Assembly (NCBI GenBank): GCA_048213135.1 | Contig: PS015067.1 | Coordinates: forward strand, 15,021 to 57,024 | DNA: 42,004 nucleotides | Source of the DNA: Reclinomonas americana ATCC 50394 | Lineage: Eukaryota | Direction: 5' to 3' | Shown: positions 2,177-42,004 of the stretch, one piece after another | How the letters are laid out: every line of letters starts with the position of its first letter | How positions within the stretch are numbered: position 1 is the first letter of the stretch | The notes under the pieces: model-generated | What the model was told of the DNA's origin: nothing | Databases searched by the model: none | Seen by the model: only the letters and a program-made list of their open reading frames with translations | Position numbers and translations under genes: made by a program

Positions 2177-2535
2177 NNNNNNNNNNNNNNNNNNNNNNNN
2201 NNNNNNNNNNNNNNNNNNNNNNNNNNNNNNNNNNNNNNNNNNNNNNNNNNNNNNNNNNNNNNNNNNNNNNNNNNNNNNNNNNNNNNNNNNNNNNNNNNNN
2301 NNNNNNNNNNNNNNNNNNNNNNNNNNNNNNNNNNNNNNNNNNNNNNNNNNNNNNNNNNNNNNNNNNNNNNNNNNNNNNNNNNNNNNNNNNNNNNNNNNNN
2401 NNNNNNNNNNNNNNNNNNNNNNNNNNNNNNNNNNNNNNNNNNNNNNNNNNCGGAAAAAAGGGTCAGTCATTGTCCTTTGTTGTCCCAGCTGACGTCGTCA
2501 GAGCGCGCACACCGACGACGGATCGCACACACAAT

Positions 2536-4306
2536 ATGCTCCGACTTTTGTGCCCCGCGCGATTGCTTGCAAAGCGTCGAATGTTGCGGCGCACGCCATA
2601 TTATGCCTTGTTCTGTGTGTGTCTTGTGACAACGACAAAATCTCGCATTGGTCGACTGCTGCACTCGTCGTTTGCGGTGGCGCTCTTTCTTGTCTATATA
2701 GATCATTCACTCTTTGTGTGAGCAACGAACTGTCTCTGCGTGGCATGTGTGTGTGCGTGTGTGTCTCATGTGTGCGCATGGGCGCGCAAGTGGGTTTTGT
2801 TGGGTGCGCATTTTTTCGAGTCTCCCCCCAGTCGTCCACGTTACATTCGCCTCCTCTCGTGTCGCCTGTTGCTGACAAACTTGCACGTGCGTACAGTGAT
2901 GTCGGTCGCACTCTGTTTCCGTCGACTGCGCGATCATCATCATCGTCTTCATCATCTCCGTCTCCATCTCCGTCTCCCTCTGCACCGCCACTCGATGCTC
3001 CTCCACCTCCCTCACGACCACCAGCAACCACCGCGACCACCGCCTCTCTTTCCAATGTGATGTTGGCCAGCAATCCGACCCAGTTGTCGGTGTTGCGCAA
3101 GCGGGCCGACATGGTTGGCGGAGTGCACTTTGGCAAGCCGCACGTCAAGCAGGTCGAACGTGAGCTGTTGAGTACGCTGGCCGAGTTTCGGCAGGTGCAT
3201 GGATTCGGGCGAGCGATTGCGGCGCCACAGATTGGTCACCTGGTCCAGATGATTGGCCTCAATCTCGGGGCCGACATGAATCGCCTGGTGTCGGGCCACC
3301 CCGACCCGTTTGTCATTGTCAATCCGCTGATCATTGAGCACAGTCGGCACATGTTTACGTTGCGTGGGGGGAGTGGAGGGGGGAAGGGGGGAGGGAAGGG
3401 AAGGGAGGAGGGGACAGCGAGAGTGGCCAAGGAGGGGGAGAGGAAAACAGTGAGACAGGGAAGACGAAGAGGAGAGGAAGGGGAGGGATGAGCAAGAGTG
3501 GGTGGATGGTGTCTCACATCGTGCGGAAGGAGGGGGAGGGGGGAAAGAGAGGAGTGAGAAAGGAAACATGAAGGAAGAGGATGCGAAGGGAAAAGGGAAG
3601 ACGAAGAGGAAGGGGAGGGAGAGGATGGAGAGGGGACAGCGCAAGTGGGTGCATAGTGTCTCACCTGTGCCTGTAAACCGGCTTCTCACATCGTGCGGAG
3701 GGAGGGGAGGAGGAAAGGGGAGGAGGAGAGAGAAATGCGAGAGCGGATGGATGGTATCTTGCTGTGTCTGTGCACTGGCTCCACGCATTGTGTGGAGGGA
3801 GGGCGGGAAGGGGGAGAGTGGCAGATCTGAGAACGCGTTGTGGTGCCGTTCCTGCGCTTGCTGATGATTGTGCGCCCTTGGCTGTGCGACGAGGCCCGAA
3901 AAACTCGTGGAATCACGTGTGTATGGGATTTCTCTCTCTCACTCTTTCTCATTCGTCCAATCCTTTCTCTCAGACGTCCTCCTCCTCCCTCACATTCGCC
4001 TCCCTCACAACCTCCTCTTGCAACAGCCTGTGGGACGACTGCATGTCGTTTCCCGACTTGATGTTCAGAGTTCGCCGCCACACATCCATCAGCATCGAGT
4101 ACCAGCTGGCCGACGGGAGTCCGCGTCGCTGGTCGAACATAACGCGCGAATTCTCCGAGTTGCTGCAACACGAAATCGATCACCTCAACGGCGTGCTCAT
4201 GTGCGATCGCGCACTGCCGGGCTCCGACGCGGTTTTGCGCAGCGACTACTTGGAGCGCAAGCAATTTTACGACCTGCAAGTAGACTACAGCATTCAACCC
4301 ACATGA
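2536..4306 (+). CDS. def: Peptide deformylase family protein with a probable organellar targeting peptide (start approximate)
   Basis: GRAIAAPQIG (3207-3236), VIVNPLI, then intron 3359-4026 joining MFT|LWDDCMSFP, and QHEIDHLNG (~4166-4192); stop at 4304-4306; MLRLLCPARLLAKR N-terminus at 2536. Confidence 0.85.
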
Positions 4307-19461: not shown

Positions 19462-19700
19462 GCGTCACAAGCCTGGGGGATGCTCACGCACAGAGCAATA
19501 GACGAAGGCTTGCGCTGCGGTGGAAGGAGGAGGATTGACAATTTCGTTGCATTGCATTGCCATCTCTCAGGACCTGGCGCCATGGCCATGGCGGAGTCGC
19601 CCGGAAGATGTTGATTGTGCAGGCAAGTTTATATTACAGTCGCAGCTGCAGCAGTGATCCAATCACTTACTCTTTCTTTTTTTCCATCCTAGTCTGTCTG

Positions 19701-22700
19701 TCACGGTCCACCCTCGGACGGCGACAGGCTGGACCGCCGGTTGCGGATGCCGGCGCTGGCGCTGGTTGGCGACAGGAACGACACACTCGGTCGTCTTCGG
19801 CTTGCGCTATCCGGTGTGCGCGCCACCGAGGCAGGCGTTCTTACGTCGGATCCGGACGTCGGCCTCACGCTCGAACGCTCACGTCCACCGTTGCTCGACA
19901 GCGATAATCTGCGGTCGCCGGGCGGCAGTGAACCACCGTTGGCCATGCTGGAGAAAACGCGGTTGACATCGCAGTCCAGATCCTGTTGCAGCAGCTGATG
20001 CTCGGAACCCATTCGTCTGCGAGGCGTGCCTCCCGACGAGTGCTCGCTGTGCGACGTGCCGGGCTCGTCAAAGAACACCACTTGTGCCGACTTTTGTTTT
20101 TTCTCGCGATCGTCTCCGGCGCCGAACTCGTCGCGCGCGGGAAGCGGGCTACCTGGTGGTGCCGCATACAGCGTGGAACGGCTGTTGGTGGCTGACGGGG
20201 GTCGACTGCTCCTCAACGCAGACGGCGGTCGATTTGCGGCGCCGACAACTTCCACAGCCACTTGCAGATCTTCCTGTCGACCATCTGGATCCTTGGCATC
20301 CTCCAAGCTTGGAGATACGGCGGATGGGATAGAGTTGAACATGTTCCACCCCTCCGGCAAGCGATCTTGCAGGCGCTCCGGCAGAATCTGGAACACTGTG
20401 TGCACGAGACGGGAAACGCAATCAGCACATTGTGGATCACGAAAGACGACATGCATGATCAGCTCACCGTGCATCACCTCCGACACGCCCTTCAGCTCCA
20501 TTGGCTATCACACCAGAGATTGTCAATCACGCCATTGGAAAGCAGGAGAGAGAGTAAGAGACAGCACACAATAGACGCACCCCAATGTAGTTGGTCACCA
20601 CCGGCATGTCCAGCTCGAGTCGCCCTTCAGAGTCCTGTGTGTGTACCGCGCCGAGTGTCAGCGAAAACAATCAACACCAAGGTGTGTCTGTTCACCCGCG
20701 ACTGACACGCAACTCGTGGCAAAGTGCGCAGGAACTCGTCCGATACGTGGATCATGCCGCCCTTGGCCGTGCCGGACACACGCGCACCTCGATTGATCGT
20801 CGTGCCTGTGTGTGTCATCATGCCAGTAAGCGTAATGAATTGAATGAGAGTGGGACACAGGGGCGCAGTGCACCGTAGTAGTCCAGCCGACCCACGACCT
20901 CGTCCATCTGCGTGTCGTGCGCAACATGCAGTGAGTAAGCACGACTTCACAAGCTGATATGACAATCGTAGATAGTGCTCACCTTGTGCGTGGCTTCGCC
21001 AAAGTGCAAGCCCATACGAATTCTGAGTCCACGGTAGATGACGCCATATCTGGCCGAGTCCACAATCGCGCCATAGTTGAGCTTGTAGAGAGCTTTCGGC
21101 CAGCGTGTCTGCGGTATAGAAAATGGTGGTGAGATGCGATGCAATCCTTGTTTCCCCCGCAAGTGTGGTGTCTGTTACTGTACCTCCAGCAGTGCCATTT
21201 GCGTCTCCAGCGCCCAGTGAATCGCATCGAACGGCTTGGTGAAGGACACCATGAAAGCGTCACCTGCCCCACAGCAACAGAGTTAGGCACAGTTCTCTTG
21301 TCTCGGTGTGCTGAACGTGTGAACACGATGCACACCTTCTGTCTTGACCTCGAAGCCGTTGTGGTCGCGCAGTCCGCGACGCATGATGCGGTGGTGCTGC
21401 TGAATGCAGCGCGACATCAGATCGGCGTCCGTCTCCCACAGAGCCGTCGAGCCTGCGCAGACTGTGTCAGTATCTCAACTCAGTTCAACCTGCACATTGC
21501 GCCGACTCACCTTCAATATCCTGTGCGATGGAAGGATACACAAAGAAGACAAGATCACAAATCAGCAACACATCACATCGCTTTCGTTAAAAATGAACCC
21601 ACCGTGAAGCCGACCACAATCTATACATCCATAGAGAATGAAAATGAGCGACCTGCTGACGGTATAAGTGATGGACGCGACAGCACTGACCGTTCCCTTT
21701 GGTGCGTTGTCCAGAGCGGCGACATAGAGATCCTCGGCGTCGACGCCGTACGCTTGGCTGTCGTTGTGCTCCTCGCGGTAGGTGCGGTCCTTGTAGATGA
21801 AGCGCGAAAGGTACATGAAAACAGCGGTGTTGGCGAGCACAAATGAGGCCACGACGACGGAGGTGAAGATTTGAATCAGTAGCTGCATGCCGCGATTCGC
21901 CGGGATATTTCCATGAACTATGCACGCAATCACGATAAGCCTCAAGATACATCCTGCACTCCGTTGAAAGCACACAGGACCCACCGCTCTTCACATGCTC
22001 GTCCTTGTAAAACACGCCCGTCAACACGAGGCCCACCACAGAGCACACTCCATGGACACCAATGGCGTCGCACGGATCTGCATGCACATCGTTCAGTTTG
22101 TTGTCGACTAGCGAAAAGAATTGTGAGAGAGCAGTACCGTCAATGTGCAGACGCTTGGAGAGCCACTGCGATGCAACGGGGAAGAGGAATGAGAATGAGG
22201 AGTGCGCACGGAATGCCATTGCCATTGCCATGCTTTCCAACTGACCACGCCCGAGTGGTATGCAGCGCCGCACACACAGCCGATGATGAATGCTGCCCAC
22301 GGTTCCACGAACGCGCATGCTGTGTGTTTCCACTTCAGGCAGCGACGAGGATGTGAAAAGACTACAGCTTATTGTCAGACGAACCAGATGTAACGCCAAC
22401 CAAGCCGGCCAGCGACCCGTTGAGCATCGAGTTGACATCGTAGATGCCCATACGCATGCTAGATGCATACATACACACATATACACATACGTGTGTAAGT
22501 GCAAGAAAGCGATCATGTTTTGGATGTTCACTTGCACACACCGAGCAATGAACAATGCGGCGAGCGTGGCACCCGAACCGGCAACAATGGTGTTGATTGC
22601 TGCGCGACCTGCGATGCGCGTAGATGGTTCAGCGAACCGCGTTCACAGGCACTCACTGTGTTGGCCTACTGTCAAATCGTACCTGCAGTGCGCATTTGAT

Positions 22701-24662
22701 CTGTACCGGGTGCGATGGTGACGGTGGAGATGGAGTTGAACCCCTGCGACACGTCGCGAGTTAGTTCCAAGAAGGACGACGCCAGCCGAATGGTCAGTGA
22801 AAACTTACCAGCCATCCGAACCACAAAATGAAACTGCCCAGCGCCTGCAACATTTGTTGCGTCTTCACCCACTGTGAGCGAACCATCTCCAGTGTGGTGT
22901 CGGCCTGCACATGCACGCATGAGTATCGCTCGTGGACGGCTGCAGATACCAAAGACACAACGCATGCATATATGCACCGCCACGTTTTCCACAGAGTCGT
23001 CCTCGGTGGCTCCGCCCACCGAGGATCCGCGGTCGGAGGAATTGTTGTCAGGGGTGACCTTTGGCGTGCCGAACACCACACCCGGGCGCGGACCGATAAT
23101 CTGAAGCGTAGGCGTCAGGAGAAGAGATCGTTGAAGTGCACGCCCAAGAAGATCTCACAGTACGCACCGCTGCACCGGCGATCGAAGCATATCCGCCAAC
23201 CATGTGCACAGCGCAGTCGCCAGCGAAATCGAGCACATAGTAACCACCGAGAATGCGCTTCTCCACCGGCGCAGAGCTGCACAGATCGCCAAGATTAGGG
23301 CATCATCTGCGCGGTCACATAGACACACACATTCCACGTGCATACCCGCTGAGCCAGCCATCTACATTTGTCAGAGGTCAGCAAAACGAATAAAAACTCG
23401 GACATCTGAGCGCACAAACACCGTCTGCCTCACCTTTGCTCCATGTCCAGTGCGCGATCACACCATAGACCCAGCTGCAAATGAACAGGTTCAGTATGAG
23501 ATAGCCCTGCAGCGGCGTCGGGTGAGATCATAGACGGGATCACAGTGCGCACGCAGCCACCAAGTGCGAAACTGAAAACTTGATGCGCTCCTGTGTGTTG
23601 TCGCATTGTCAGCTCGCATTACTATCAGTGAGGGGGAAAAGGACAAATGGGACGCAACGGCCACAGCTCCAGACATCACAGTGCCCTGCTCAGCGAGAGA
23701 GTGTCAGACGCGCGCGTGCGCGTGCTGTGTGTGCGCGGATTTCTAAACTCCATAAGGACGCAACAGCTGCAGCGCAGAAACCAAAACCGTACATCCACAC
23801 CAGCGCCTCGTTGGTGTTGTTGGGAATGGCAAACACCTGATTTATGTTGAAACCAAAAACACCATTCGACTCTGTGTGTGTGCGCGGTGAGAAATAAGGA
23901 GATCAACTGCTTTCCAATTTGAGAAACAGTATGTGCGTGAAAGCAGAGGGCAAGGAGGAGAGTCTGACTGGCTGCGCGCGTAAGCCCACGTGTTTTTGTG
24001 TGCAGGTATGTGCGTGTATGTATGCGCTCGAGGCGAGAAGAGTACTCTGAAGTGCAAAACCGAAAGTGACCGTTGACGTACCCGAATAGGCAAGAGTGCT
24101 TCCCAGCGCCCACCAGGCCAGCGCCGCCGTTCCCGTGTCGGCATAGTTTTTGAGCACGATAAGTTGCACGCCCTTTTTCACACTTGCTGCCTGTGACGTG
24201 CACGGGGGAAAGAGAGAGCGAGAGAGTGAGCGAAAGAGAGTCAGAACGAAACACCCAACGAACACACACACACGCCACAAGGCATGCAACGTGCGACAAC
24301 TCACCTCAATGAGCAAAAAGCCAGCCTTCATGAAGAACACGAGTGCGGCACCGACGAACACCCACTGTCATAGAAAGACCAGCGTGAGACTGCCTTCCTT
24401 GTTTGGCGCGCACACACCAATAAGGACGTTTCTTCTTCGTTTCAGGCACACAAGCGAGGGAGAAAGATGTGGTGGTGTGTACCAGACACACACGCACGCA
24501 CACACGCGAACAGATCGAGAAAGAGAAAAAAAGAAGGCAGCCACACGCTTGCAACAGGGAGAGAGTGATGTTCATGGAGAGTTTTGGTGCAAGTCAGTCA
24601 TCGCACGCAACAACAGCATTGACGCTCAGCGTCAGCTCTGCGCTGGCGTTGGTACCGCTCAT
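19701..24662 (-). CDS. Ammonium transporter (Amt/MEP) - class III adenylyl cyclase fusion protein, paralog A
   Basis: Spliced: WVFVGAALVFFMKAGFLLIE|AASVKKGVQLIVLKNYADTG...|ILGGYYVLDFAGDCAVHMVGGYASIAGAA|GPRPG...LGSFILWFGWL|GFNSIS...|DPCDAIGVHGVCSVVGLVLTGVF...FMYLSRF...LDNAPKGT|IVVGFT|DIEG|STALWE...GFEVKTEG|DAFMVSF...RGLRIRMGLHFGE|GRLDYY|GTTINRGARVSGTAKGG...ELKGV; Ser/Arg-rich tail, stop at 19701. Confidence 0.92.
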
Positions 24663-24913
24663 GAGAGGAGGCCAAATCCGTGAAACCGACGACAACTGAG
24701 CCACAATCACTCCGTGCGACACAAACAATAAAAACGACGTATGATGCGTACGAAGGACAATTTGGATGCGGCCAACGACATGCATAGGGAGGGCAGTAGC
24801 TCTCACTGATCTGTCAAGCCCGCGTACCCCCAAAGAAAAGAGAAAAAAACTGTATTTCTCACGCGCGTGGTGCGCCGTACAACACAACTTCCGAAACTTG
24901 CTTCTCGACGCAC

Positions 24914-26051
24914 TCAGAACCGCTCGCCTGTGCCGCCGCCACCACCACCGAGACTCCAGAAGTCACCCTCGAGACCTACTTGTGCGAATATGTCACGCGC
25001 CTCCTGCACGGACCACTTGCGCCAGTCGCGGCGCGCATGCTGCCCGTACCACACTCGAGAGAGCGCAATGAGCTGCGGCATGGGCACGACGGCACCGCGT
25101 GCGCTCTTAATGGCCCCTCCACCGCAGTGCCGCTGCACCCACGCGTCAATATCGTCGGCGCAGCGAAACGGCACACAGCAGCTGCATGTGTGATGCACGT
25201 TGTCCCAGGCGCGCCGAGGCGGTACCGAAAAGTGCACCACCAGCTCCGGCTGGTCACACTGCATCGTGTCGCCGCCATCGACGCGAATNNNNNNNNNNNN
25301 NNNNNNNNNNNNNNNNNNNNNNNNNNNNNNNNNNNNNNNNNNNNNNNNNNNNNNNNNNNNNNNNNNNNNNNNNNNNNNNNNNNNNNNNNNNNNNNNNNNN
25401 NNNNNNNNNNNNNNNNNNNNNNNNNNNNNNNNNNNNNNNNNNNNNNNNNNNNNNNNNNNNNNNNNNNNNNNNNNNNNNNNNNNNNNNNNNNNNNNNNNNN
25501 NNNNNNNNNNNNNNNNNNNNNNNNNNNNNNNNNNNNNNNNNNNNNNNNNNNNNNNNNNNNNNNNNNNNNNNNNNNNNNNNNNNNNNNNNNNNNNNNNNNN
25601 NNNNNNNNNNGCACACATTCTCGCGCTCCGCCCCGAGGCGAGTGTGAATGAGCACTGCCGTCGCCGCACCGCTGCCGCCGCTGTCGACGAGGAGGAGAGT
25701 GGCGATGCCGAGAGCGCACCACATGCATGGTGCCCACCAGCCCCGCGACGCATCGCCCTCCACCTCCACCCACGTGTGCGTTGGTGACATGGAGAACGGG
25801 TGCACCACCCACAGCGGAGGCAAGTGCACTCCGTCGGCGTGCTCCTCCTCGTACGGGTGCAGCACTGCCGCGTGACCAGCCTCCATGCGGCGCAGTGAGG
25901 ATGCCAGCGCCGCCAGGCTGCCACCAAACACTTCGTCGGCGAGTGTGGCGTAGGTGGGCGGTCGGCCGTCGTGAAGCATGCCTGTCACAATCAAGTGATG
26001 GATCAATGCATCGGCTTTCTCCTCCTCCTCTTCGGCCGCCTCCCTCTCCAT
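24914..26051 (-). CDS. Alkylmercury lyase (MerB)-like protein, interrupted by an N gap that probably holds an intron
   Basis: N-terminal HTH-like GRPPTYATLA; WVVHPFSMSPTHTWV; WWAPCMWCALGIATLL; VVHFSVPPRRAWDNVHHTCS; DIDAWVQRH; LSRVWYG...WRKWS...IFAQVGLEGDFWSL. Confidence 0.75.
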
Positions 26052-26292
26052 CGCTGCCGGTGCGCAGGCTGACAACATTGGGGGCAATTGTNNNNNNNNN
26101 NNNNNNNNNNNNNNNNNNNNNNNNNNNNNNNNNNNNNNNNNNNNNNNNNNNNNNNNNNNNNNNNNNNNNNNNNNNNNNNNNNNNNNNNNNNNNNNNNNNN
26201 NNNNNNNNNNNNNNNNNNNNNNNNNNNNNNNNNNNNNNNNNNNNNNNNGTATTAGCTGCCTCGCTCTCTCCTCTCACCACTCTCTAGATCAA

Positions 26293-29200
26293 TTACAATG
26301 AATGTTTTGCGTTGGGGGACGGCACCGACGACGCTTGACTTCCGCGACGATTTCTTGTGCTGGCCGACGTCGGCGACAGGAAAACCACGCTTGGCCGCGG
26401 AGCTTGTGACGATATGATGCTCTCTTGTGGAGCAACGCTGGGCCGTCGGTTGTCGGCGGCCGACAGGGGTCGTGAGTGCGATCCTGTTGATGAGTCTGAT
26501 ATTCCCGCAAAGGCAACACTTCTTCGTCGATTTTCTTGCCGGCCGGCGCCCAGCAGACTGGTGCGCGACGATGGCCGCGAGGATCGCCACTCCGCAGCCG
26601 GCAGCGGCTCGCCGGAAACCATGCTGGAGAAGGCGCGGTTGCCCTCGCAGTCCAGATCCAGCTGATTGAGCAGAGTGGCGGCCGAGGGTGTACCGGGTAA
26701 TGACCCGTTGCCACCGACGTACTCGGCCGACATGCTGCCGAGAGTGGGTCGCCGCTCAAGCGTGCGCGACTGTGACCGATCCCGCACATGCATCACCATG
26801 TTGGCGTCGCCGGGTGTCACCGACGCGATATACACACTCGAGCGCCCCGACATTGCCCTCTCCACCGGTATCGCCTGCACCGGGTCGCTCGTCCTTGATT
26901 GTGGACTGGTGAGCGACTCAACAGTCACATGCAGGCCGTGGTTGCCGCCATTGGCTGACATTTTCTCCATGTACTCCTCAGCCGCCTCCGACGGCGCCTG
27001 ATTGTTGCCTGGAGTCATCTCTGCCGGCATGATGCCACCGACCGGCACCGAGTTGTACATGTTCCACCCCTCCGGCAAGCGATCTTGCAGGCGCTCCGGC
27101 AGAATCTGGAACACTGTGTGCACGAGACGGGAAACGCAATCAGCACATTGTGGATCACGAAAGACGACAGTCATGATAAGCTCACCGTGCATCACCTCCG
27201 ACACACCCTTCAGCTCCATTGGCTATCACACCAGAGATTGTCAGTCACGCCATCGAAACGCAAGCGAGGGCGAGTAAGAGACAGCACACAATAGACGCAC
27301 CCCAATGTAGTTGGTCACCACCGGCATGTCCAGCTCGAGTCGCCCTTCAGAGTCCTGTGTGTGTACCGCGCAGAGTGTCAGTGAAAACAATCAACAGCAA
27401 GGTGTGTCTGTTCACCGCGACTGACACGCAACTCGTGGCAATGTGCGCAGGAACTCGTCCGATACGTGGATCATGCCGCCCTTGGCCGTGCCGGACACAC
27501 GCGCACCTCGATTGATCGTCGTGCCTGTGCGTGTTATCATGTCAGTCAGCGTCATGAATTGAATGAGTGGGACACAGGGGCGCAGTGCACCGTAGTAGTC
27601 CAGTCGACCAACGACCTCGTCCATCTGTGGCGCAACATGCAGCAGGTGAGCACGACTTTACAAACTGATATGGTAATCGTAGATAGTGCTCTGTTCACCT
27701 TGTGCGTGGCTTCGCCGTAGTGCAAGCCCATACGAATTCTGAGTCCACGGTAGATGACGCCATATCGTGGCGAGTCCACAATCGCGCCATAGTTGAGCTT
27801 GTAGAGAGCTTTCGGCCAGCGTGTCTGCGGTATAGAAAATGGTGGTGAGATGCGATGCAACCCTTATTGTTCCCCACAAGTGTGGTGTCTGTTACCTCCA
27901 GCAGTGCCATTTGCGTCTCCAGCGCCCAGTGAATCGCATCGAATGGCTTGGTGAAGGACACCATGAAAGCGTCACCTGCCCCACAGCAACAGAGTCAGGC
28001 ACAGTCCTCTTGTCTCGGTGTGCTGAACGTGTGAACATGATGCACACCTTCGGTTTTGACCTCGAAGCCGTTGTGGTCGCGCAGTCCGCGACGCATGATG
28101 CGGTGGTGCTGCTGAATGCAGCGCGACATCAGATCGGCGTCCGTCTCCCACAGAGCCGTGGAGCCTGCCAAGACTGTGTCAGTTTCTCAACTCAGTTCAA
28201 CCTGCACACCGCACCGACTCACCTTCAATATCCTGTACGATGGAAGGATACAAAAAGTAGACAAGATCACTATCAGCAACACATCACACACAGTCAACAG
28301 AATCAGCAGTGTAATCACCGTGAAGGCCACCACAATCTGCACATCAGGAGAGCGAGACAAATGAGCGATATACAGAAAGGAGTTGGTGGTGGACGCGACA
28401 GCACTGACCGTTCCCTTTGGTGCGTTGTCCAGGGCGGCGACATAGAGATCCTCGGCGTCGACACCATACGCCTGGCTGTCGTTGTGCTCCTCGCGGTAGG
28501 TGCGGTCCTTGTAGACGAAGCGCGAAATGTACATGAAAACAGCGGTGTTGGCCAGCACCCACACTGCCACGGTAAGGCTGCCAACAAGCTGCATGGCCAG
28601 CTGCATGCCGCGATTCGGCGGGATGAAGCCGAACACTGCACAGTCACTCTGTGAGCAATACAGAAACGGCGCGCGGAGCGCGATTTCCTGGCGAGTACAA
28701 CACACACCGTTGAAGACGTGCTCGTCCTTGTAGAGTACGCCAACACAGAGGAGGCCGACAATCGAGCACATGCCGTGCACACCGATGGCATCGCATGGGT
28801 CTGCAGCAGAATGAGAATCGTAGAACAACAGACACATCGCGGCAGTGGTGACCAACCATCAATGTGCAGCACTTTTGCCAGACGCTAGAGCAAGGTAAGC
28901 GAAGGTGTGTGTTTCTTAGTCAGCAGCAACAAATGAGAAGCTACACCAGTGCGGTAAACTCACCACTCCAATGTGGTAGCACGCTCCACTGACGACGCCA
29001 ATGATGAATGCCGCCCACGGCTCGACAAATGCGCAGCCTGTGTGCCGTGAGACACGAAGCTGGAGACAGAATCAAACGTCAGTAGCACACACCGGAAGTG
29101 ATGCCGACGAGGCCCGCGAGCGAGCCGTTGATCATCGAGTTGACATCGTAGATGCCCATTTTCCAGCTGCGTGTGATCATGACCACCAACGTGAGTGCGC

Positions 29201-31348
29201 ACAGAGCTTCCGATTCTCTCAAGATTCACACGTACCGAGCCACCAGCAAGGCGGAGAGTGTGGCTCCAGATCCCGCAATAATAGAATTCACCGCACACCG
29301 CCCTGCAGCACGCATTCAGCAGAACGCACAATCACTGTAAGTGCGTGCAGCATGAATGCGCACCTGCTGTGCGCATCTGCTCAACGCCTGGAGAGATAGT
29401 GACCGTGGAGCACGCATTGAAACCCTGTTCGTCCCACGCCACATATCAGCAACCACGAATGCAGCACAGTACAGGTGGTGAAAATGGCTGATGACGCACC
29501 AGCCAGCCGAACCACAGAATGAAGCTTCCGAGTGCTTGCAGCATTTGCTGAGTCTTGACCCACTGCGAGCGGACCATCTCGAGCGTGTTGTCGGCCTGCT
29601 CTGAGTTGAGCATAAAGCAAGAATCGCGGGAAGGAAGGTCTCTTGCGCACCGCCACATTTTCCACTTCATCGTCCTCCGTCATGCCGCCCATTGAGGAGC
29701 CACGATCGGACGAGTTGTTGTCGGGTGTGACCTTGGTCTCGAAGACAACACCCGGCCGAGGCCCGAGAATCTGCGTCGGCGCCGTCGTGTCAACAACAAG
29801 TGTGGCCATCGGTGCTGACCGCATTATGCGAGCACTTACCGCTGCTCCAGCAATCGAGGCGTACCCACCGACCATGTGCACGGCGCAATCGCCCGCAAAG
29901 TCAAGGATAAAGTAGCCGTAGAACGGACGCTTCTCAATCGGTGCGGCTCTGCAGTGCAAGCGGCGGGTGAGCGGACACGTACTTTGTGTGTGCCGAGCAT
30001 ACACCACGCTGCTGTGTGACAGACCCACTCATCCAGCCATCTGCATCGCGTGTTTATGAGAAAAGAAATCCATCAAAATTAACGTCGAAGTATGTTCTCA
30101 CCTTTGCTCCACGTCCAGTGGGCAACCGTGCCGTAGATCCAGCTGCAGACGAACAGGTTGAGCATCAAGTATCCCTGTGCAAGTGGGTGAGTACGGATCC
30201 AAACGGCCACCACCGCACACATTCATCATGGCCGACGAAACGGAGAGTTTGACACGCTCCTGCAGATGAAATCCGAACCCGAACCACACGGTAAGATACC
30301 TCTCTCGACGAAAACGGCAAACGAAACGGAAACGCAACAGCCATGGCGCCCGACATGACAGTTCCCTGTGGAGGAAGAAGGCAAAACGCTGAGTTTACAT
30401 GGCTGGACTGGCGGAAGCTCTTGGACACGCAACTGCACAAGCGCAAAAGCCAAAGCCGAATACCCACACTAAACCATCGGTGGTCGAACTGGGTACACCA
30501 AACACTTGTGCCGAATCAAAGCCGAATACACCATTCAGTGCTGCCATTGTACATCAAGCGAATCACCAGTGAGCAGAAAGGAGGGAGAGGAGATCGGTCA
30601 CACAGGTGCCAAATCTGGAGAGACACATCGACCGTTGACTCACGTGCGTTTTGGAGAGTGTAGCCCAGCCCCCACCAGGCCAACATCGCCGTTCCCGTAT
30701 CCGCGTAGTTCTTGAGCACGATAAGCTGTACACCCTTGCGCACACTGGCCGCCTGCGTTTTGTGTGTAATGTGACGCAAGTTTGTCACAAAATGCGACGA
30801 CTCTCCGAACAGAGACGGAGAGAGAGAGAGAGCACACACACACACAGACTCTCCCTGCTGGTGTCTCGCGACTCACCTCAATGAGCAGGAAGCCAGCTTT
30901 CATGAAGAACACCAGAGTGCCACCGACAAAGATCCACTGCGGCACGCAGTGCGTGTGAGAAAAACGACAAAATACCGCTCACAGATGAGTGTGCATGAGT
31001 GGGTCGCATGCATGTGCGTATCAAGTGGGCGAAGAAGAGTGTGCACGGTGTGTGTGTGTGTGTGTGTGAGAGAGAGACAGCACTATGTGTTGTATCATCT
31101 CCACACTTGTGGAAAACAGCAAGCGAAAGGAGATCTCAGTGCGTCTCCGTTAGAGTGCGCGTGAAAGAGTGCGCGCGTGTGTGTGCGAGGGAGGGTGGGA
31201 GGGAGGGAGAGAGAGAGAACGATAATCGTGTTCGCGAATGAGCCGTTAGTGAGTGGTGAGACGCAACGACAGCGTTGATACCAAACGGCAGATCTGAGTA
31301 TGGATCGGGCGCCGCTGCCGCTGGCATCGATGCCGACGCGTCGTCCAT
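26293..31348 (-). CDS. Ammonium transporter (Amt/MEP) - class III adenylyl cyclase fusion protein, paralog B
   Basis: Spliced: WIFVGGTLVFFMKAGFLLIE|AASVRKGVQLIVLKNYAD...WVFGFGFCACAVA|GTVMSGAMA|ERVKLS|GYLMLNLFVCSWIYGTVAHWTWSKG...DFAGDCAVHMVGG...LWFGWL|GFNACS...NGSLAGLVGITS|GCAFVEPW...DPCDAIGVHG...NAPKGT|IVVAFT|DIEG|STALWE...EVKTEG|DAFMV...GLRIRMGLHYGE|RLDYY|GTTINRGARV; stop at 26293. Confidence 0.92.
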
Positions 31349-32284
31349 TGTGACGGGGGTGTAAGTGGAAACACTGCGTGTGAGTGCGTGAAACAGCTGC
31401 TGTCTCTTCTCGCACAACCCACGAACAAAACTAACACTCAAATATTCGCTGCGCAAAAATGGAATCCAGTACGTGAAAGGAGACAACGGCGAAAACATCA
31501 CCTGCGTTGTTTCTTCGAGGCGTTGAGAACGTTCGCCGTGGGCATGGGAATACGAGGAGCTGGGACGCCGGCTGCGCAGCGTGTGCTTGCGGCGGTGGAA
31601 CGGTGTGGTCAGTCGAAAGAATCGATCGTTCAGGATTGCAATTCGCGGAGCTCCCTCATTTCGTCGCGCCGTTCATCACGTATCGCAGTTTGTCGATGGG
31701 TTTGTCCGCCCTTCAGCGCTGCGCTGGCGCGCCGCTCATGCTCAGCGGTCGGCGGGTGCCGACAAATCAAGCAGAACTCTGCGGCCGGATTCGAGAAACT
31801 CTCTGCTGCTGCGCGTTTCGCCCCGAAGAGAGTGCATTGCATGATACATGTACATCTACTGCAGCGGCCACCACAGTCAAGTTGGCTGCTGTTCACCATC
31901 TGCACTCGCTCCACCCCACCACTGCTCGCCGCCAGTGTGTGTGTCCCGACAGCCAGGGTCAGTATCTAACGACCATTCCCCTGCTCTCCTTCTTTTCGCT
32001 GCAACGAACTCTCTCCCTGGAAACACCCGCAACGCGGCGATTCTCTTGCCTAACAGTCGAGGCTGCTGTTGCTTCCCTTCTCTCGCCAGCCCTCATGATC
32101 ACCCACCCATCGATCTTCCCTTCAACATTGTCGGCATCGCGATCGACACAGACCGCGCAGCGCGGTCGCGATCACTCATTCCACAACGCTTGACACGGGC
32201 CCACAACACAAGAGTGACTATCGTCACAGCAGCACCCGTGCGCAACAAAAGACGAAGCTCTAACCGCCGTCTTCGAACATCTCT

Positions 32285-33282
32285 TTACGCATCTGTTCCA
32301 CCGGCACCACCGCCTGCCGCCCACCGCCGCTCACGCTCCTTCTGCCGCACCTCGCGCTCCAGCTCGAACTGCCGATGATCAGCACGCACGAGAAACTCTT
32401 GCCGCTCGATGAACCTTTCGCGGCACCACATGAGAGAAACAAACAAACACACGCAGCAGCACAGCAGCCGCAATTCACAAACCCGTCCTTTCGTGCACCG
32501 GCCAGCTCGTCCTCCAGACCCTGGTCGTTCTTGTACGAGTCCCAGTCGCGCTTGGATCGATCCAGCACCGACTCCTTCTTCGGCTTCTTGATGGCGTTGA
32601 TCATGTCGTCGATGGAGTTGCCGGCGGGACTGTAGGAGAGACAGAGAGCGTGGTGAGAGGAGCGGCCAAAAGAAGAGAGAACGCTCGGGCGACCAAACGC
32701 GCCGTTTCGTGCCGGCCAGTCGCGCTGTCGGAGGCGAGACGACTGGCGGAGGTGGGACAGGCGCAGGTGGAGGCGGAGGTGCAGCAGCAGGTGGCTTGCG
32801 CACACGACTGCTGGCCTGCATCTCAGCAAAGAAATCATCGACCGACTTGCCGGACGCACCACCACTCTTCTGTGCGCCGCCGGAGATGGTCGCGGCAATC
32901 GCAGTCGCCGCGACCGCAGCAGCGCCACGTGTCACACGCGCCTCTCGCGGTTTCACTCCACCCTCAATCGCCGCCCAGTCCTCATCATCATCATCATCAC
33001 CAGAGTCCGATGTCTCCGCCTCGTCCTCCTCCTCATCCTCCTCGTCTCTCCCGACTCGCTTGCCCTTCTTGCCGCCCGCAGATCGCGGAGGCTTTGCTTT
33101 CTTTGTCGCCGCTGCAGATGCGCTCGTCGACTTGCTCTTGGCCGCTTTCTCTACACACACACACGCACACATGCACACACATAGTGTGAGTTGCGCCTGT
33201 TGTTGCCTGTGCGGCATCACCCCGTCAAACCTGGCACGTAGTCCTCGTCAGCGGAACTATCGCTGTGTTCGTCGTCGCTCAT
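32285..33282 (-). CDS. CFDP1: BCNT-C domain protein (CFDP1/Swc5-like, SWR1/SRCAP complex)
   Basis: MSDDEHSDSSADEDYVP N-terminus, acidic/basic low-complexity middle, C-terminal KKESVLDRSKRDWDSYKNDQGLEDELAGARKDG|FIERQEFLVRADHRQFELEREVR. Confidence 0.85.
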
Positions 33283-33415: not shown

Positions 33416-33843
33416 CTAAAACACTGGCTGCGCCGCTCGTACTTCCGGCTCGACCTCGGCAAAGGCCTTCTTGTAGGGCGAGTCGGCCCCGGGTGGTGTC
33501 ACCAGAATCACCGAGGTTGGTCGCTTGGTGCCTGCGGCGGCGCCCAGCTCGGCCTTTGACGGTGTGTAAATGTAGGGAATGCCGGCGTCTTCGCACAGCA
33601 CCGCCAAGTGCGAGATCACGTCAATCGGGCTAATGTCGCCCGCAATGATGCACACTCTGTGCACGACGAGAGAGAGAGAGAGAGAGAAGAGGGTGAGAGA
33701 AGAGTGTAAGAGGGAGAGGGAGAGAAGAGTGTGAGAAGAGAGTGAGAGGGCAAGAGTGGAAAAGGGCACTTGAAAAAGGATCCATTCGCGTGAGGCCAGA
33801 AGCGTGCATGCACTCGATCACAGACGCAGGCCAGGAAAGAACG

Positions 33844-34565: not shown

Positions 34566-36554
34566 ATGAGTGCCTGGGAGCTTTTGTGGCTGCTGCTTGC
34601 CGCACTGTGCGCCTTTCATGTTACGCACTGCCTCTCACTCACATCTCTATGCGCTCTTCTGCTCACTCACTCTCTCAAGTAGGTGTGGGAGAGTGTGGTG
34701 TGGCCGCGTTTGCGCTTTGGAGGTGCAGGTGGTGCGTTGCGTGCGGGTGCGTGTGTGGTCATCACAGGTGCGAGCTCGGGCATTGGGCGGGCGGCGGCGC
34801 TGGAGTATGCCAAGGCCGGGTGTCGTGTCGTGTTGCTGGCGCGCACAGAGGTGATTAGGAGAGACGGAAGGCAAGGGAAAGGGTGTGAGAGACACAGACG
34901 CTTTCCTCGTTGCATCGGAGCTTTGTGGCGTCTCTGCACATGACACGCTTTGCTCAGTGCCACAACAACACTGTTCGCTGGGCGGTTCTTCCCTCATGAG
35001 AGGCAGCACAGACGAATTCTACTCGCTCGCCTTTCTTGTTCTCGTTGCATCGGAGCTTTGTGGCGCTCTGCATGACACGCCTTGCTCACATTGTTTACTC
35101 TGGTCGGTTCTCCCTCGTGAGAGGCAGCACAGACGCTTTCGTTCTCGTTGCATCGGAGCTTTGTGGCGTCTCTGCATGACACACAGACCTCTTCCTTGCT
35201 CAGTGCCTCTTCCACGCTTCACTCTGGTCCATCTTTGTGAGAGGCAGCACAGACGCCTCTGTTCTTGTTCTCGTTGTATCGGAGCTTTGTGGCTTCTCTG
35301 TACGACACACAGACCTCTTCCTTGCTTAGTGCGTCTTCCACGCTGTTCACTCTGGTCGGTTCTCCCTCGTGAGACGCAGTACAGACGCCTTCCTTGCGCT
35401 GTACCAGTACTGTTCTTCTTGTCGTTGCATCGGCGAACCGTGGCTTCTCTTCACACTCCTTCTCCCTTTGATCCTTACCTGACATACCGTCCTTCTCCCT
35501 TCTCCCTTCTCCCTTCTCCCTTCTCCCTTCTCTCTTCCTCCTCTGCCCTTCTACCACTCACTTGCTGCTGTGATCGATTTGTTTGTGCGTTGTGCAGTCG
35601 AAGCTTCGCGAGGTGGTGGCCGAGATCGCGCAGCTCAAGGGCGGTCGTGTGCCGCGAGCCACGTACCACGCCGTGGACGTGTCGGACGCCGATGCCATGT
35701 TGAGTGTGGCCGACCGCATTGTGGCCGACAACAACGGCCAGCCGCCGGATGTGCTCGTCAACAATGCGGGCGCCGGTCAGTGGCTGTTTGCGAGCGAGAC
35801 CAAGCCGTCGCAGATGGTCGACATGATGTGTGTGCCGTACTTTGCCGCCTTCAACGCCACGCACGCCTTTTTGCAGCGCATGAAGGCCAACCGACGCGGG
35901 CAGATTGTGTTTGGTGAGACTTCATCCTCCGCCCGCTTGCTGCAAACCTCGCTGCTCTCACCTCCGCTTTGACAGTGACATCGCCGGCGAGCTACGTGTC
36001 GATCCCCGGTGCCGCCTGCTACACGGCCGCCCGCCATGCTGGTCTGTCGCGCGTGTGTGTGTGAGAGAGAAAATGAGTGTGCTGATTGCTGCGGTGAACA
36101 GTCAAGGGCTTTGCCGAGTGCCTGCAGGCCGAGTTGAAGGGCTCCGGCCTCAATGTCTCCATTGTGGTCATGGCCAAGGTGCGGTGAAGCGAGGATAAGT
36201 GGCCACCATCTGCGTACTAACCCTCGCCACGCACGTGCAGGTGGCCTCGACCTACTGGGCCAACAACCCGGGATCAGAAGAGGTTTTCTTCTTGTCGCCA
36301 AGCTCCTCTTGACCCCCCGCTCTTCTCACCCTGTCTCTATGCACCCCTTCCACCAGCGCGTCCCGGGCATCAGCGTGCTCATCCCGACCATGTCCGAGGA
36401 GGCCGCCGGTCGCACGCTGGTCGAGGCCAGCCGCTACCCGCGCGACCTCATCACGGCTCCGTTCATTTTCACCATCATTTACGAGGCATACCTGCTGCTT
36501 CCGCGCGTCGTCACCTGGCTCCTGCATGTGACCTCCACCAAGGCCAAGCACTGA
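34566..36554 (+). CDS. Classical short-chain dehydrogenase/reductase with an N-terminal hydrophobic anchor
   Basis: MSAWELLWLLLAALCAFH|VWESVV...VVITGASSGIG...LLARTE|SKL...VDVSD...VLVNNAGAG...GQIVF|VTSPASY...YTAARHA|VKGFAECLQAEL; stop at 36552-36554. Confidence 0.9.
34886..35450. repeat. Intronic minisatellite, ~120 bp unit, ~4.5 copies
   Basis: Recurring GAGAGGCAGCACAGACG...TTCTCGTTGCATCGGAGCTTTGTGGCG...CATGACAC at ~34886, 34998, 35118, 35238 and 35370, inside SDR intron ~34851-35597. Confidence 0.85.

Positions 36555-36659: not shown

Positions 36660-42004
<5,345 letters not shown>

Follow-up and report, generated by a model that had tools for sequence, protein, structure and literature searches.

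Ammonium sensing in eukaryotes is an old open question. Ammonia antagonises the development of Dictyostelium, which is driven by cyclic AMP (cAMP), and the ammonium transporters (Amt) Mep2 of yeast and AmtC of Dictyostelium act as transceptors that signal ammonium availability, Mep2 doing so upstream of protein kinase A (PKA); neither carries an enzymatic output domain. To our knowledge, the link from transporter to second messenger is known neither in yeast nor in Dictyostelium. In bacteria, the binding of NH4+ is coupled to a fused kinase in Ks-Amt5 and to a fused diguanylate cyclase in Sd-Amt1 (PMC5764959, PMC11152129), and the model proposed for Sd-Amt1 involves a trimer-to-dimer symmetry break, activation causing a pair of the three output domains to dimerise (PMC11152129). 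In this work we analyzed a 42,004-nucleotide (nt) stretch of DNA from Reclinomonas americana ATCC 50394 (contig PS015067.1, positions 15,021–57,024; hereafter the window), in which an earlier note had pointed to two tandem genes fusing an Amt to an adenylyl cyclase. They are referred to below as genes A and B.

Judging from the sequence, each gene encodes a candidate ammonium receptor with cAMP output in one polypeptide, a reading that we hold to be somewhat probable. Ammonium gating of cAMP synthesis by such a protein is plausible.

Two Genes of Identical Exon Structure

The window is eukaryotic nuclear DNA with a GC content of about 55% and 11 assembly gaps, none of which lies inside either gene. 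From start to stop codon, gene A (19701–24662) comprises 28 exons and encodes 891 amino acids (aa), and gene B (26293–31348) comprises 28 exons and encodes 942 aa; both genes, and hence all features described in them, are on the minus strand. The span named in the earlier note, 19701–31348, proved to be delimited precisely by the stop codon of gene A and the start codon of gene B, and the features it quoted were all found at their given coordinates. The gene models are predictions from the DNA, built by hand from three-frame displays, AG/GT boundaries and comparison of the paralogues, with each boundary checked by a script. Gene A was modelled with AG/GT checks and an open spliced frame, and gene B was mapped from A under the constraint of AG/GT boundaries and phase.

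All 27 introns of each gene are of the GT..AG type, with 22 CAG and 5 TAG acceptors in A and 25 and 2, respectively, in B. They are 55–331 nt long (median 72), and the median exon measures 74 nt. Intron positions and phases are identical in A and B, and no in-frame stops were revealed. Chance is excluded, because 27 frame-preserving introns yield a collinear full-length Amt and cyclase twice, with a ratio of nonsynonymous to synonymous divergence (omega, dN/dS) below 0.1 in both domains. The claim that Amt and cyclase are fused in a single gene is thus borne out, at the level of predicted splicing, by the collinear exons and the open frame of both paralogues.

The Junction Between Amt and Cyclase

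The junction exon, exon 18 (21691–21917 in A, 28409–28635 in B), encodes the last Amt helix and the linker, which is 26 aa long and ends in PKGT; in A the exon is bounded by AG and GTCAGT and contains no stop. It is followed by an intron of about 70 nt, an 18-nt exon, an intron of 82–86 nt, a 10-nt exon and exon 21. The 18-nt micro-exon 19 (21603–21620 in A, 28319–28336 in B) encodes the first beta-strand of the cyclase; in A it is bounded by ATAG and GTGGGT and restores both the frame and the motif. The first metal-binding Asp is provided by the 10-nt micro-exon 20 (DIE plus one nt; 21511–21520 in A, bounded by CACAG and GTGAGT, and conserved in B at 28223–28232). Both predicted micro-exons are flanked by AG/GT in both genes. 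Therefore, the last Amt helix and the linker do share one exon, as had been noticed earlier, whereas this exon does not run straight into the cyclase, whose first strand and metal-binding Asp sit on the micro-exons. A separate cyclase gene is not credible, because it would have no start codon of its own and would lack a strand that is essential.

A junction query consisting of B exon 17, the in-frame intron and exon 18 (131 aa) was searched against 1.84 billion representative proteins and gave three matches at E <= 0.001. Two of them are fragments of open reading frames (ORFs): P0001 (159 aa, E 4e-10) comes from one 925-bp contig and P0002 (79 aa, E 7.6e-4) from two contigs of about 927 bp. 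The remaining match, P0003, comes from Stygamoeba regulata; it has 476 aa and is an unfused Amt (38% identity over 104 residues). Both fragments contain the last helix, a recognisably conserved linker and FTD(I/V)EG within a single ORF, and P0002 continues to STSLW (FTDIEGSTSLW). Their ends differ in position, which would be expected from introns placed otherwise in those organisms. The linker is conserved in four sequences from at least three sources, and the two ORFs show that an Amt-cyclase fusion exists in two or more additional sources. Among the 1.84 billion proteins, none turned up that was an annotated relative of full length. A word-index search for longer homologues, a method blind to distant relatives, gave none at threshold (17 candidates for the A junction exon, 91 for the read-through of B exon 9, intron and exon 10, and 58 for P0002).

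The Amt Domain

The Amt domain is encoded by exons 1–17 and the first part of exon 18 and covers aa 17–445 in A (21769–24662) and aa 27–455 in B (28484–31348). Comparisons with Pfam and the PDB were made exon by exon, and the spliced proteins were compared with local profiles and by phmmer; the local references came from five bacterial genomes reached via a 16S-primer scan and searched for PF00909 and PF00211. A local hidden Markov model (HMM) of 13 bacterial PF00909-matching domains matched A with 255.6 bits (HMM positions 1–383 of 398) and B with 248.7 bits (1–384 of 398), a coverage implying that all Amt helices are present. With phmmer, the spliced proteins matched bacterial Amt ORFs at E 7.5e-39 (A) and 1.7e-41 (B).

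Single exons were consistent with this assignment. PF00909 was matched collinearly by five of the 18 scanned exons of A (E 1.4e-5 to 0.086) at profile positions 145–168, 190–205, 247–267, 269–290 and 304–330, and A exon 17 reached 24.5 bits, above the curated cut-off of 23.2. When stop-to-stop ORFs were used, the family was found in 4 of 16. B exon 17 aligns with residues 310–332 of E. coli AmtB (E 0.017), and all 30 matches of the piece spanning exons 17 and 18 to Atlas protein clusters were PF00909 clusters. A crude hydropathy scan gave 10 overlapping peaks in A and 14 in B.

The motifs DGW[LM]S, DFAGxxxxH, WxGFNxxS and DDPxDxxGVHG are found in both proteins and comprise the external Trp, the DFAG Asp, both pore His and the gate Phe and Ser, which we take to correspond to AmtB W148, D160, H168, F215, S219 and H318. 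By the local PF00909 profile on the spliced proteins and these motifs, the Amt domain is complete and has its pore residues, in support of the earlier note. Two other Pfam matches were discarded, namely UNC80 in one stop-to-stop ORF (E 0.0016, below its cut-off and attributed to chance) and Citrate_synt in one exon (E 0.31, chance level). It was also observed that both proteins share an acidic, Asp/Ser-rich insertion of about 50 residues (approximately residues 199–250) in the loop after the helix bearing the first pore His. It corresponds to exon 10 (22978–23100 in A, 29651–29770 in B) and is absent in the bacterial reference Amts, the alignments made by phmmer and with the HMM being broken or gapped at this place.

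The pore-side two-ammonium site (N1/N2) of Ks-Amt5 and Sd-Amt1 is defined by the signature Q-x6-E-x15-N-x2-D-[FT]-x54-60-T-x2-[ST] (Pflueger and colleagues, PMC11152129). Six of its seven residues (Glu, Asn, Asp, Thr, Thr and Ser) are found in A and B, together with the flanking Phe and Lys of Sd-Amt1; in gene A the site residues are K30, F33, E37, K51, N52, D55, T56, T111 and S114. When the first residue was left free and x14 was allowed, this relaxed signature was revealed in three of 16 Amts tested, namely A, B and an Amt-PAS-cyclase of Trichodesmium described below, and was absent in 12 stand-alone bacterial Amts and the Stygamoeba Amt. On their sequences, A and B are best called AmR-like, not proven AmR members.

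The Cyclase Domain

The class III cyclase domain is encoded by exons 19 to the start of 28 and extends from aa 472 to about 665 in A (20382–21620) and from aa 481 to about 674 in B (27100–28336). A local HMM of 30 bacterial PF00211-matching domains gave 35.0 bits for A (aa 474–629) and 36.0 bits for B (aa 481–638), covering positions 3–155 of 178. The catalytic set, composed of two metal-binding Asp, the ATP-specifying Lys and Asp and the transition-state Asn and Arg, was aligned to the conserved columns of the profile; the roles of these residues are those established for mammalian and bacterial class III enzymes. The motifs FTDIEG, KTEGDAF, LDYYG and TINRGAR lie at 476, 517, 596 and 602 in A and at 485, 526, 605 and 611 in B, so that all six residues of the ATP-specific set proposed earlier were confirmed in both spliced proteins.

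Among PDB entries, exon 21 matched only GRESAG4.3 and GRESAG4.1 of Trypanosoma brucei (E 0.0015 and 0.0038, residues 23–59). As the one exon with a significant match, it agrees with the resemblance to the trypanosome type suggested in the earlier note, its nearest solved structures being these two enzymes. All four matches of exon 25 were to nucleotide cyclases at positions 130–154, though weak (E 0.22–1), and four of the eight matches of exon 22 were to the Ma1120 cyclase (residues 59–82 or 92–115, E 1.4–1.8), the others being unrelated. On this evidence the predicted domain is a complete, though divergent, class III adenylyl cyclase that comes closest to those of trypanosomes.

Evolution of the Gene Pair

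The two halves of the genes have diverged to very different degrees. The Amt halves share 78% protein identity with a saturated dS of 1.77, a dN of 0.165 and an omega of 0.09. Identity rises to 95% in the last helix and linker (dS 0.165) and to 98.5% in the cyclase (dS 0.092, omega 0.07). Both copies are under purifying selection.

A gene-conversion tract, predicted at 20332–21906 in A and 27050–28624 in B, reaches from exon 18 about 20 codons into exon 28 and includes the introns. Over 1591 aligned columns, introns included, its two copies have 90.4% DNA identity (blastn), whereas the Amt halves align in exon patches only, with 67–79% identity. The simplest reading of this pattern would be that the gene was duplicated in tandem long ago and that gene conversion later acted on the output half.

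An Amt-Cyclase Fusion in Trichodesmium

A bacterial counterpart was revealed in Trichodesmium erythraeum IMS101 as an ORF of 1209 aa (L147:1968–5597, minus strand, chromosome G001:C1) with the architecture Amt-PAS-cyclase. By Pfam it contains Ammonium_transp at 104–495, three to four PAS domains and Guanylate_cyc at 1025–1204. It carries the strict ammonium-receptor signature and belongs to a 57-member Atlas cluster auto-named 'putative adenylate cyclase'; no paper characterising it was found in the literature.

As in A and B, the Amt is followed by a class III cyclase in one polypeptide. Unlike them, the Trichodesmium protein is bacterial and has about 530 aa with three to four PAS domains between the modules, whereas A and B have no PAS. 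With 217 bits, its cyclase is typical of PF00211, and phmmer with A and B did not match it at E <= 1e-3. Because of this missing match and of the absence of PAS in A and B, the eukaryotic and Trichodesmium fusions most likely arose independently, as far as their sequences tell.

Matches at E <= 1e-30 were found in 162 of 301 sampled cyanobacterial genomes. Among the matches listed, at least 16 further genomes (G007, G013, G019, G043, G082, G097, G177, G183, G195, G199, G203, G225, G235, G251, G269 and G299) match over the Amt part and about 50–120 residues beyond it, in open frames of 844–1210 aa. Thus, Amts with long C-terminal extensions seem common in cyanobacteria. An open frame of 1017–1022 aa containing an Archangium Amt (L148) was rejected as a high-GC artefact and is not a fusion.

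C-Terminal Tails, Exon Coordinates and Neighbouring Genes

Each cyclase is followed by a long tail. Together with the stop codon it occupies 19701–20381 in A (226 aa, 51% Ser, Thr, Pro, Arg and Gly, no Pfam family) and 26293–27099 in B (268 aa). Apart from a conserved C-terminal patch, the tails have diverged (38% identity, omega 0.43). R[RK]x[ST] motifs, a PKA-type consensus, occur three times in the A tail (19704–20381) and four times in the B tail (26296–27099), both tails consisting of about 50% Ser, Thr, Pro, Arg and Gly, and two such motifs lie inside the patch near the C-terminus that is conserved between A and B. Such an arrangement might allow for feedback phosphorylation.

The exons of gene A, from 1 to 28 and given from high to low coordinate, lie at 24662–24612, 24364–24305, 24190–24082, 23871–23765, 23685–23659, 23590–23573 and 23506–23434 (exons 1–7), at 23361–23346, 23276–23168, 23100–22978, 22904–22809, 22743–22683, 22608–22542 and 22458–22385 (8–14), at 22319–22246, 22165–22138, 22077–21985, 21917–21691, 21620–21603, 21520–21511 and 21452–21336 (15–21), and at 21263–21184, 21108–20983, 20907–20874, 20805–20714, 20634–20581, 20504–20468 and 20395–19701 (22–28). 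Those of gene B lie at 31348–31268, 30936–30877, 30752–30644, 30540–30434, 30365–30339, 30259–30242 and 30174–30102 (exons 1–7), at 30040–30025, 29948–29840, 29770–29651, 29595–29500, 29424–29364, 29302–29236 and 29166–29093 (8–14), at 29037–28964, 28884–28857, 28800–28708, 28635–28409, 28336–28319, 28232–28223 and 28164–28048 (15–21), and at 27975–27896, 27824–27699, 27624–27591, 27524–27433, 27354–27301, 27222–27186 and 27113–26293 (22–28). Exon 25 of A is uncertain, since an alternative donor 18 nt further on (20696) would add six residues; the donor shared with B was used, and the alternative one is abolished in B by a one-base deletion. The unusual donor GTTGCG occurs four times per gene in the same introns (1, 4, 5 and 25), e.g., after 24612, 23765, 23659 and 20714 in A.

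No third copy of the gene was found in the window, as none of 22 tblastn high-scoring segment pairs lay outside 19600–31400, and an Rfam scan of the whole window gave zero matches. Two runs of N (25289–25610 and 26092–26248) fall in the 1.6-kb spacer between A and B, so that the assembly is incomplete in the promoter region of A and around the 3' end of B. Neighbouring ORF pieces at 2493–4303 (plus strand), 32263–33247 (minus), 33419–33817 (minus), 35574–35969 (plus) and 40827–41282 (minus) gave matches of the housekeeping type (peptide deformylase, BCNT, the ribosomal L7Ae family, a short-chain dehydrogenase and an AAA ATPase), none of them functionally linked to the A/B pair.

Discussion

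A receptor of this build might operate as follows. The N-terminal Amt module would be expected to have 11 helices and to be trimeric like all Amts, the trimer presenting three C-termini. The 26-aa linker would represent the short cytoplasmic C-terminal region typical of Amts, which is conserved among the relatives. A single catalytic domain per chain could not form an active site alone, and two would have to pair. NH4+ would enter the Amt pore and occupy a pore-side site like N1/N2 of Ks-Amt5 and Sd-Amt1; occupancy would move the last helix and the C-terminal region, and this movement would alter which cyclase domains pair, under one trimer or between trimers, with the result that cAMP synthesis changes. 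What we infer in this scheme is the trimer, the pairing of the cyclases, the direction in which the modules are coupled and the sign of the change in cAMP.

Several observations weigh against a receptor of this kind. No HAMP, DHp, PAS or coiled-coil transducer was found between the modules, and in the exon-wise Pfam comparison the linker exon matched no family. The strict N1/N2 signature was found in neither A nor B, the first residue being Lys instead of Gln and the spacing from Glu to Asn being 14 instead of 15. Moreover, plant AMT1 proteins that transport share the signature, which therefore does not separate sensors from transporters (PMC11152129); its presence thus points to a sensing-capable Amt and not to a loss of transport. 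As to the output domain, exon 23 had no match in the PDB, none of the four cyclase exons with 20 aa or more matched PF00211 alone at E <= 1, and a phmmer comparison of the spliced proteins with 30 bacterial cyclase loci yielded just one to two matches at E of about 4e-4. The assignment as a cyclase rests on a home-made profile, one significant exon match and motifs.

It may be argued that the Amt is mainly a membrane anchor, an oligomerisation scaffold or a targeting device (e.g., for the flagellum), which perhaps transports as well, and that the cyclase is controlled by another input, such as Ca2+, bicarbonate, pH or tail phosphorylation; the fusion would then merely bring cAMP production and ammonium uptake to the same place. 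Plain transport is possible, since the pore residues are all retained, the modules are joined with no recognised transducer domain, the three to four R[RK]x[ST] sites per tail offer an alternative regulatory input, and transporter-like anchors with no proven ligand role are found in many cyclases of protists, one example being CYA18 of Chlamydomonas with its K+-channel-like module (PMC9561859). We nevertheless find this explanation unlikely, given that the conservation of so short a linker in sequences of different origin suggests mechanical coupling and not a loose tether, and that the receptor-type signature was found in fused Amts only. The coupling may also run in reverse, with cyclase and tail serving as the regulatory C-terminus of a working transporter whose uptake is tuned by local cAMP or by phosphorylation of the tail by PKA. 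Alignment with the stand-alone Stygamoeba Amt does place the linker at the Amt C-terminal region, RRxS-type sites are conserved near both tail C-termini, and in plant AMT1 the C-terminal region trans-activates neighbouring subunits. However, the catalytic set is complete, has been kept at an omega of 0.07 and is homogenised between A and B, a sign of selection on catalysis itself and not on a mere regulatory appendage. We regard reverse coupling as quite improbable; it is compatible with the receptor reading, and both could hold.

A more trivial explanation would be that the gene models are artefacts of separate adjacent Amt and cyclase genes or of unexpressed pseudogenes. The fusion is indeed known from predicted splicing of DNA, exons of 10 and 18 nt are unusually small, and the frame of exon 18 stays open for 42 codons past its donor, so that intron retention could formally yield a product with the Amt only. 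But the first cyclase strand, which begins 71 nt past exon 18, lacks its own start codon, and without this strand a cyclase would be dead. Besides, both paralogues share an identical, frame-keeping structure of 27 introns and have an omega below 0.1 in both halves, and P0002, from another source, runs from the last helix through the linker to FTDIEGSTSLW in an uninterrupted ORF. Taken with these facts, an artefact is hardly to be believed.

Returning to the receptor reading, it can be extended to a hypothesis in which A and B found a eukaryotic family of one-component ammonium-to-cAMP receptors. The two proteins would form mixed trimers, their sensors having diverged for different ammonium ranges and their cyclases having been homogenised for A-B pairing across the symmetry break. 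We regard this extension as possible but rather doubtful.

Amt-based receptors in bacteria and transporter-like modules on protist cyclases are already known; the eukaryotic fusion of an Amt to a class III cyclase appears to be new. The earlier note knew of no characterised eukaryotic example; the architecture as such is less novel in view of the bacterial Amt-PAS-cyclase of Trichodesmium. No description of an Amt-class III cyclase fusion was found in a literature search that left aside Fig. 7B and the supplements of PMC11152129, which give the domain organisations of fused Amts per kingdom and may list Amt plus Guanylate_cyc. The separate existence of the cyanobacterial protein suggests that the coupling of Amt to cyclase was invented more than once. 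If the receptor reading is true, the bacterial principle of the Amt as a receptor, known from Ks-Amt5 and Sd-Amt1, would be extended to eukaryotes and to cAMP, and a second natural case would be at hand of a trimeric sensor driving a dimeric enzyme. With the sensor and the cAMP enzyme in one chain, the link between ammonium and the second messenger would become directly testable in vitro, and the proteins could potentially be used as a compact genetically encoded ammonium-to-cAMP converter.

Among known systems, the closest solved catalytic domains for exon 21 are those of T. brucei GRESAG4.1 and GRESAG4.3 (PDB 1fx2 and 1fx4). Trypanosome receptor-type cyclases have a single catalytic domain per chain and must homodimerise, and their sensory part is not an Amt but a large extracellular domain resembling periplasmic binding proteins, followed by one transmembrane helix. 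Mep2 and AmtC act via separate partners, whereas A and B carry the second-messenger enzyme in the same chain; Mep2 is placed in cluster 1, without the N1/N2 site (PMC11152129). The ion-channel-like cyclases of Paramecium, Plasmodium and Tetrahymena and Chlamydomonas CYA18 resemble A and B in having a membrane-transport module N-terminal to a class III cyclase, but this module is K+-channel-like and the stimulus proposed for it is a different one (PMC9561859).

With Ks-Amt5 of 'Candidatus Kuenenia stuttgartiensis', A and B share the use of the Amt as a sensor and a transducer that is fused directly, with no HAMP (PMC5764959); the ligand at position 51 is Thr in Ks-Amt5 and likewise in A and B. 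Ks-Amt5 differs in being bacterial and in its kinase output, which feeds a two-component pathway (PMC5764959). Sd-Amt1 of Shewanella denitrificans (Amt-HAMP-GGDEF) contains a HAMP domain and a GGDEF output producing cyclic di-GMP (PMC11152129), whereas A and B have only the 26-aa linker and a class III cyclase predicted to make cAMP. A and B further differ from it in their eukaryotic, intron-rich host, in the long disordered tail, in the Lys that replaces the first Gln and in one spacer that is a residue shorter. What they have in common with Sd-Amt1 (PMC11152129) is a C-terminal output of the nucleotide cyclase type that must dimerise under a trimeric sensor, and N1/N2 ligands that are largely the same.

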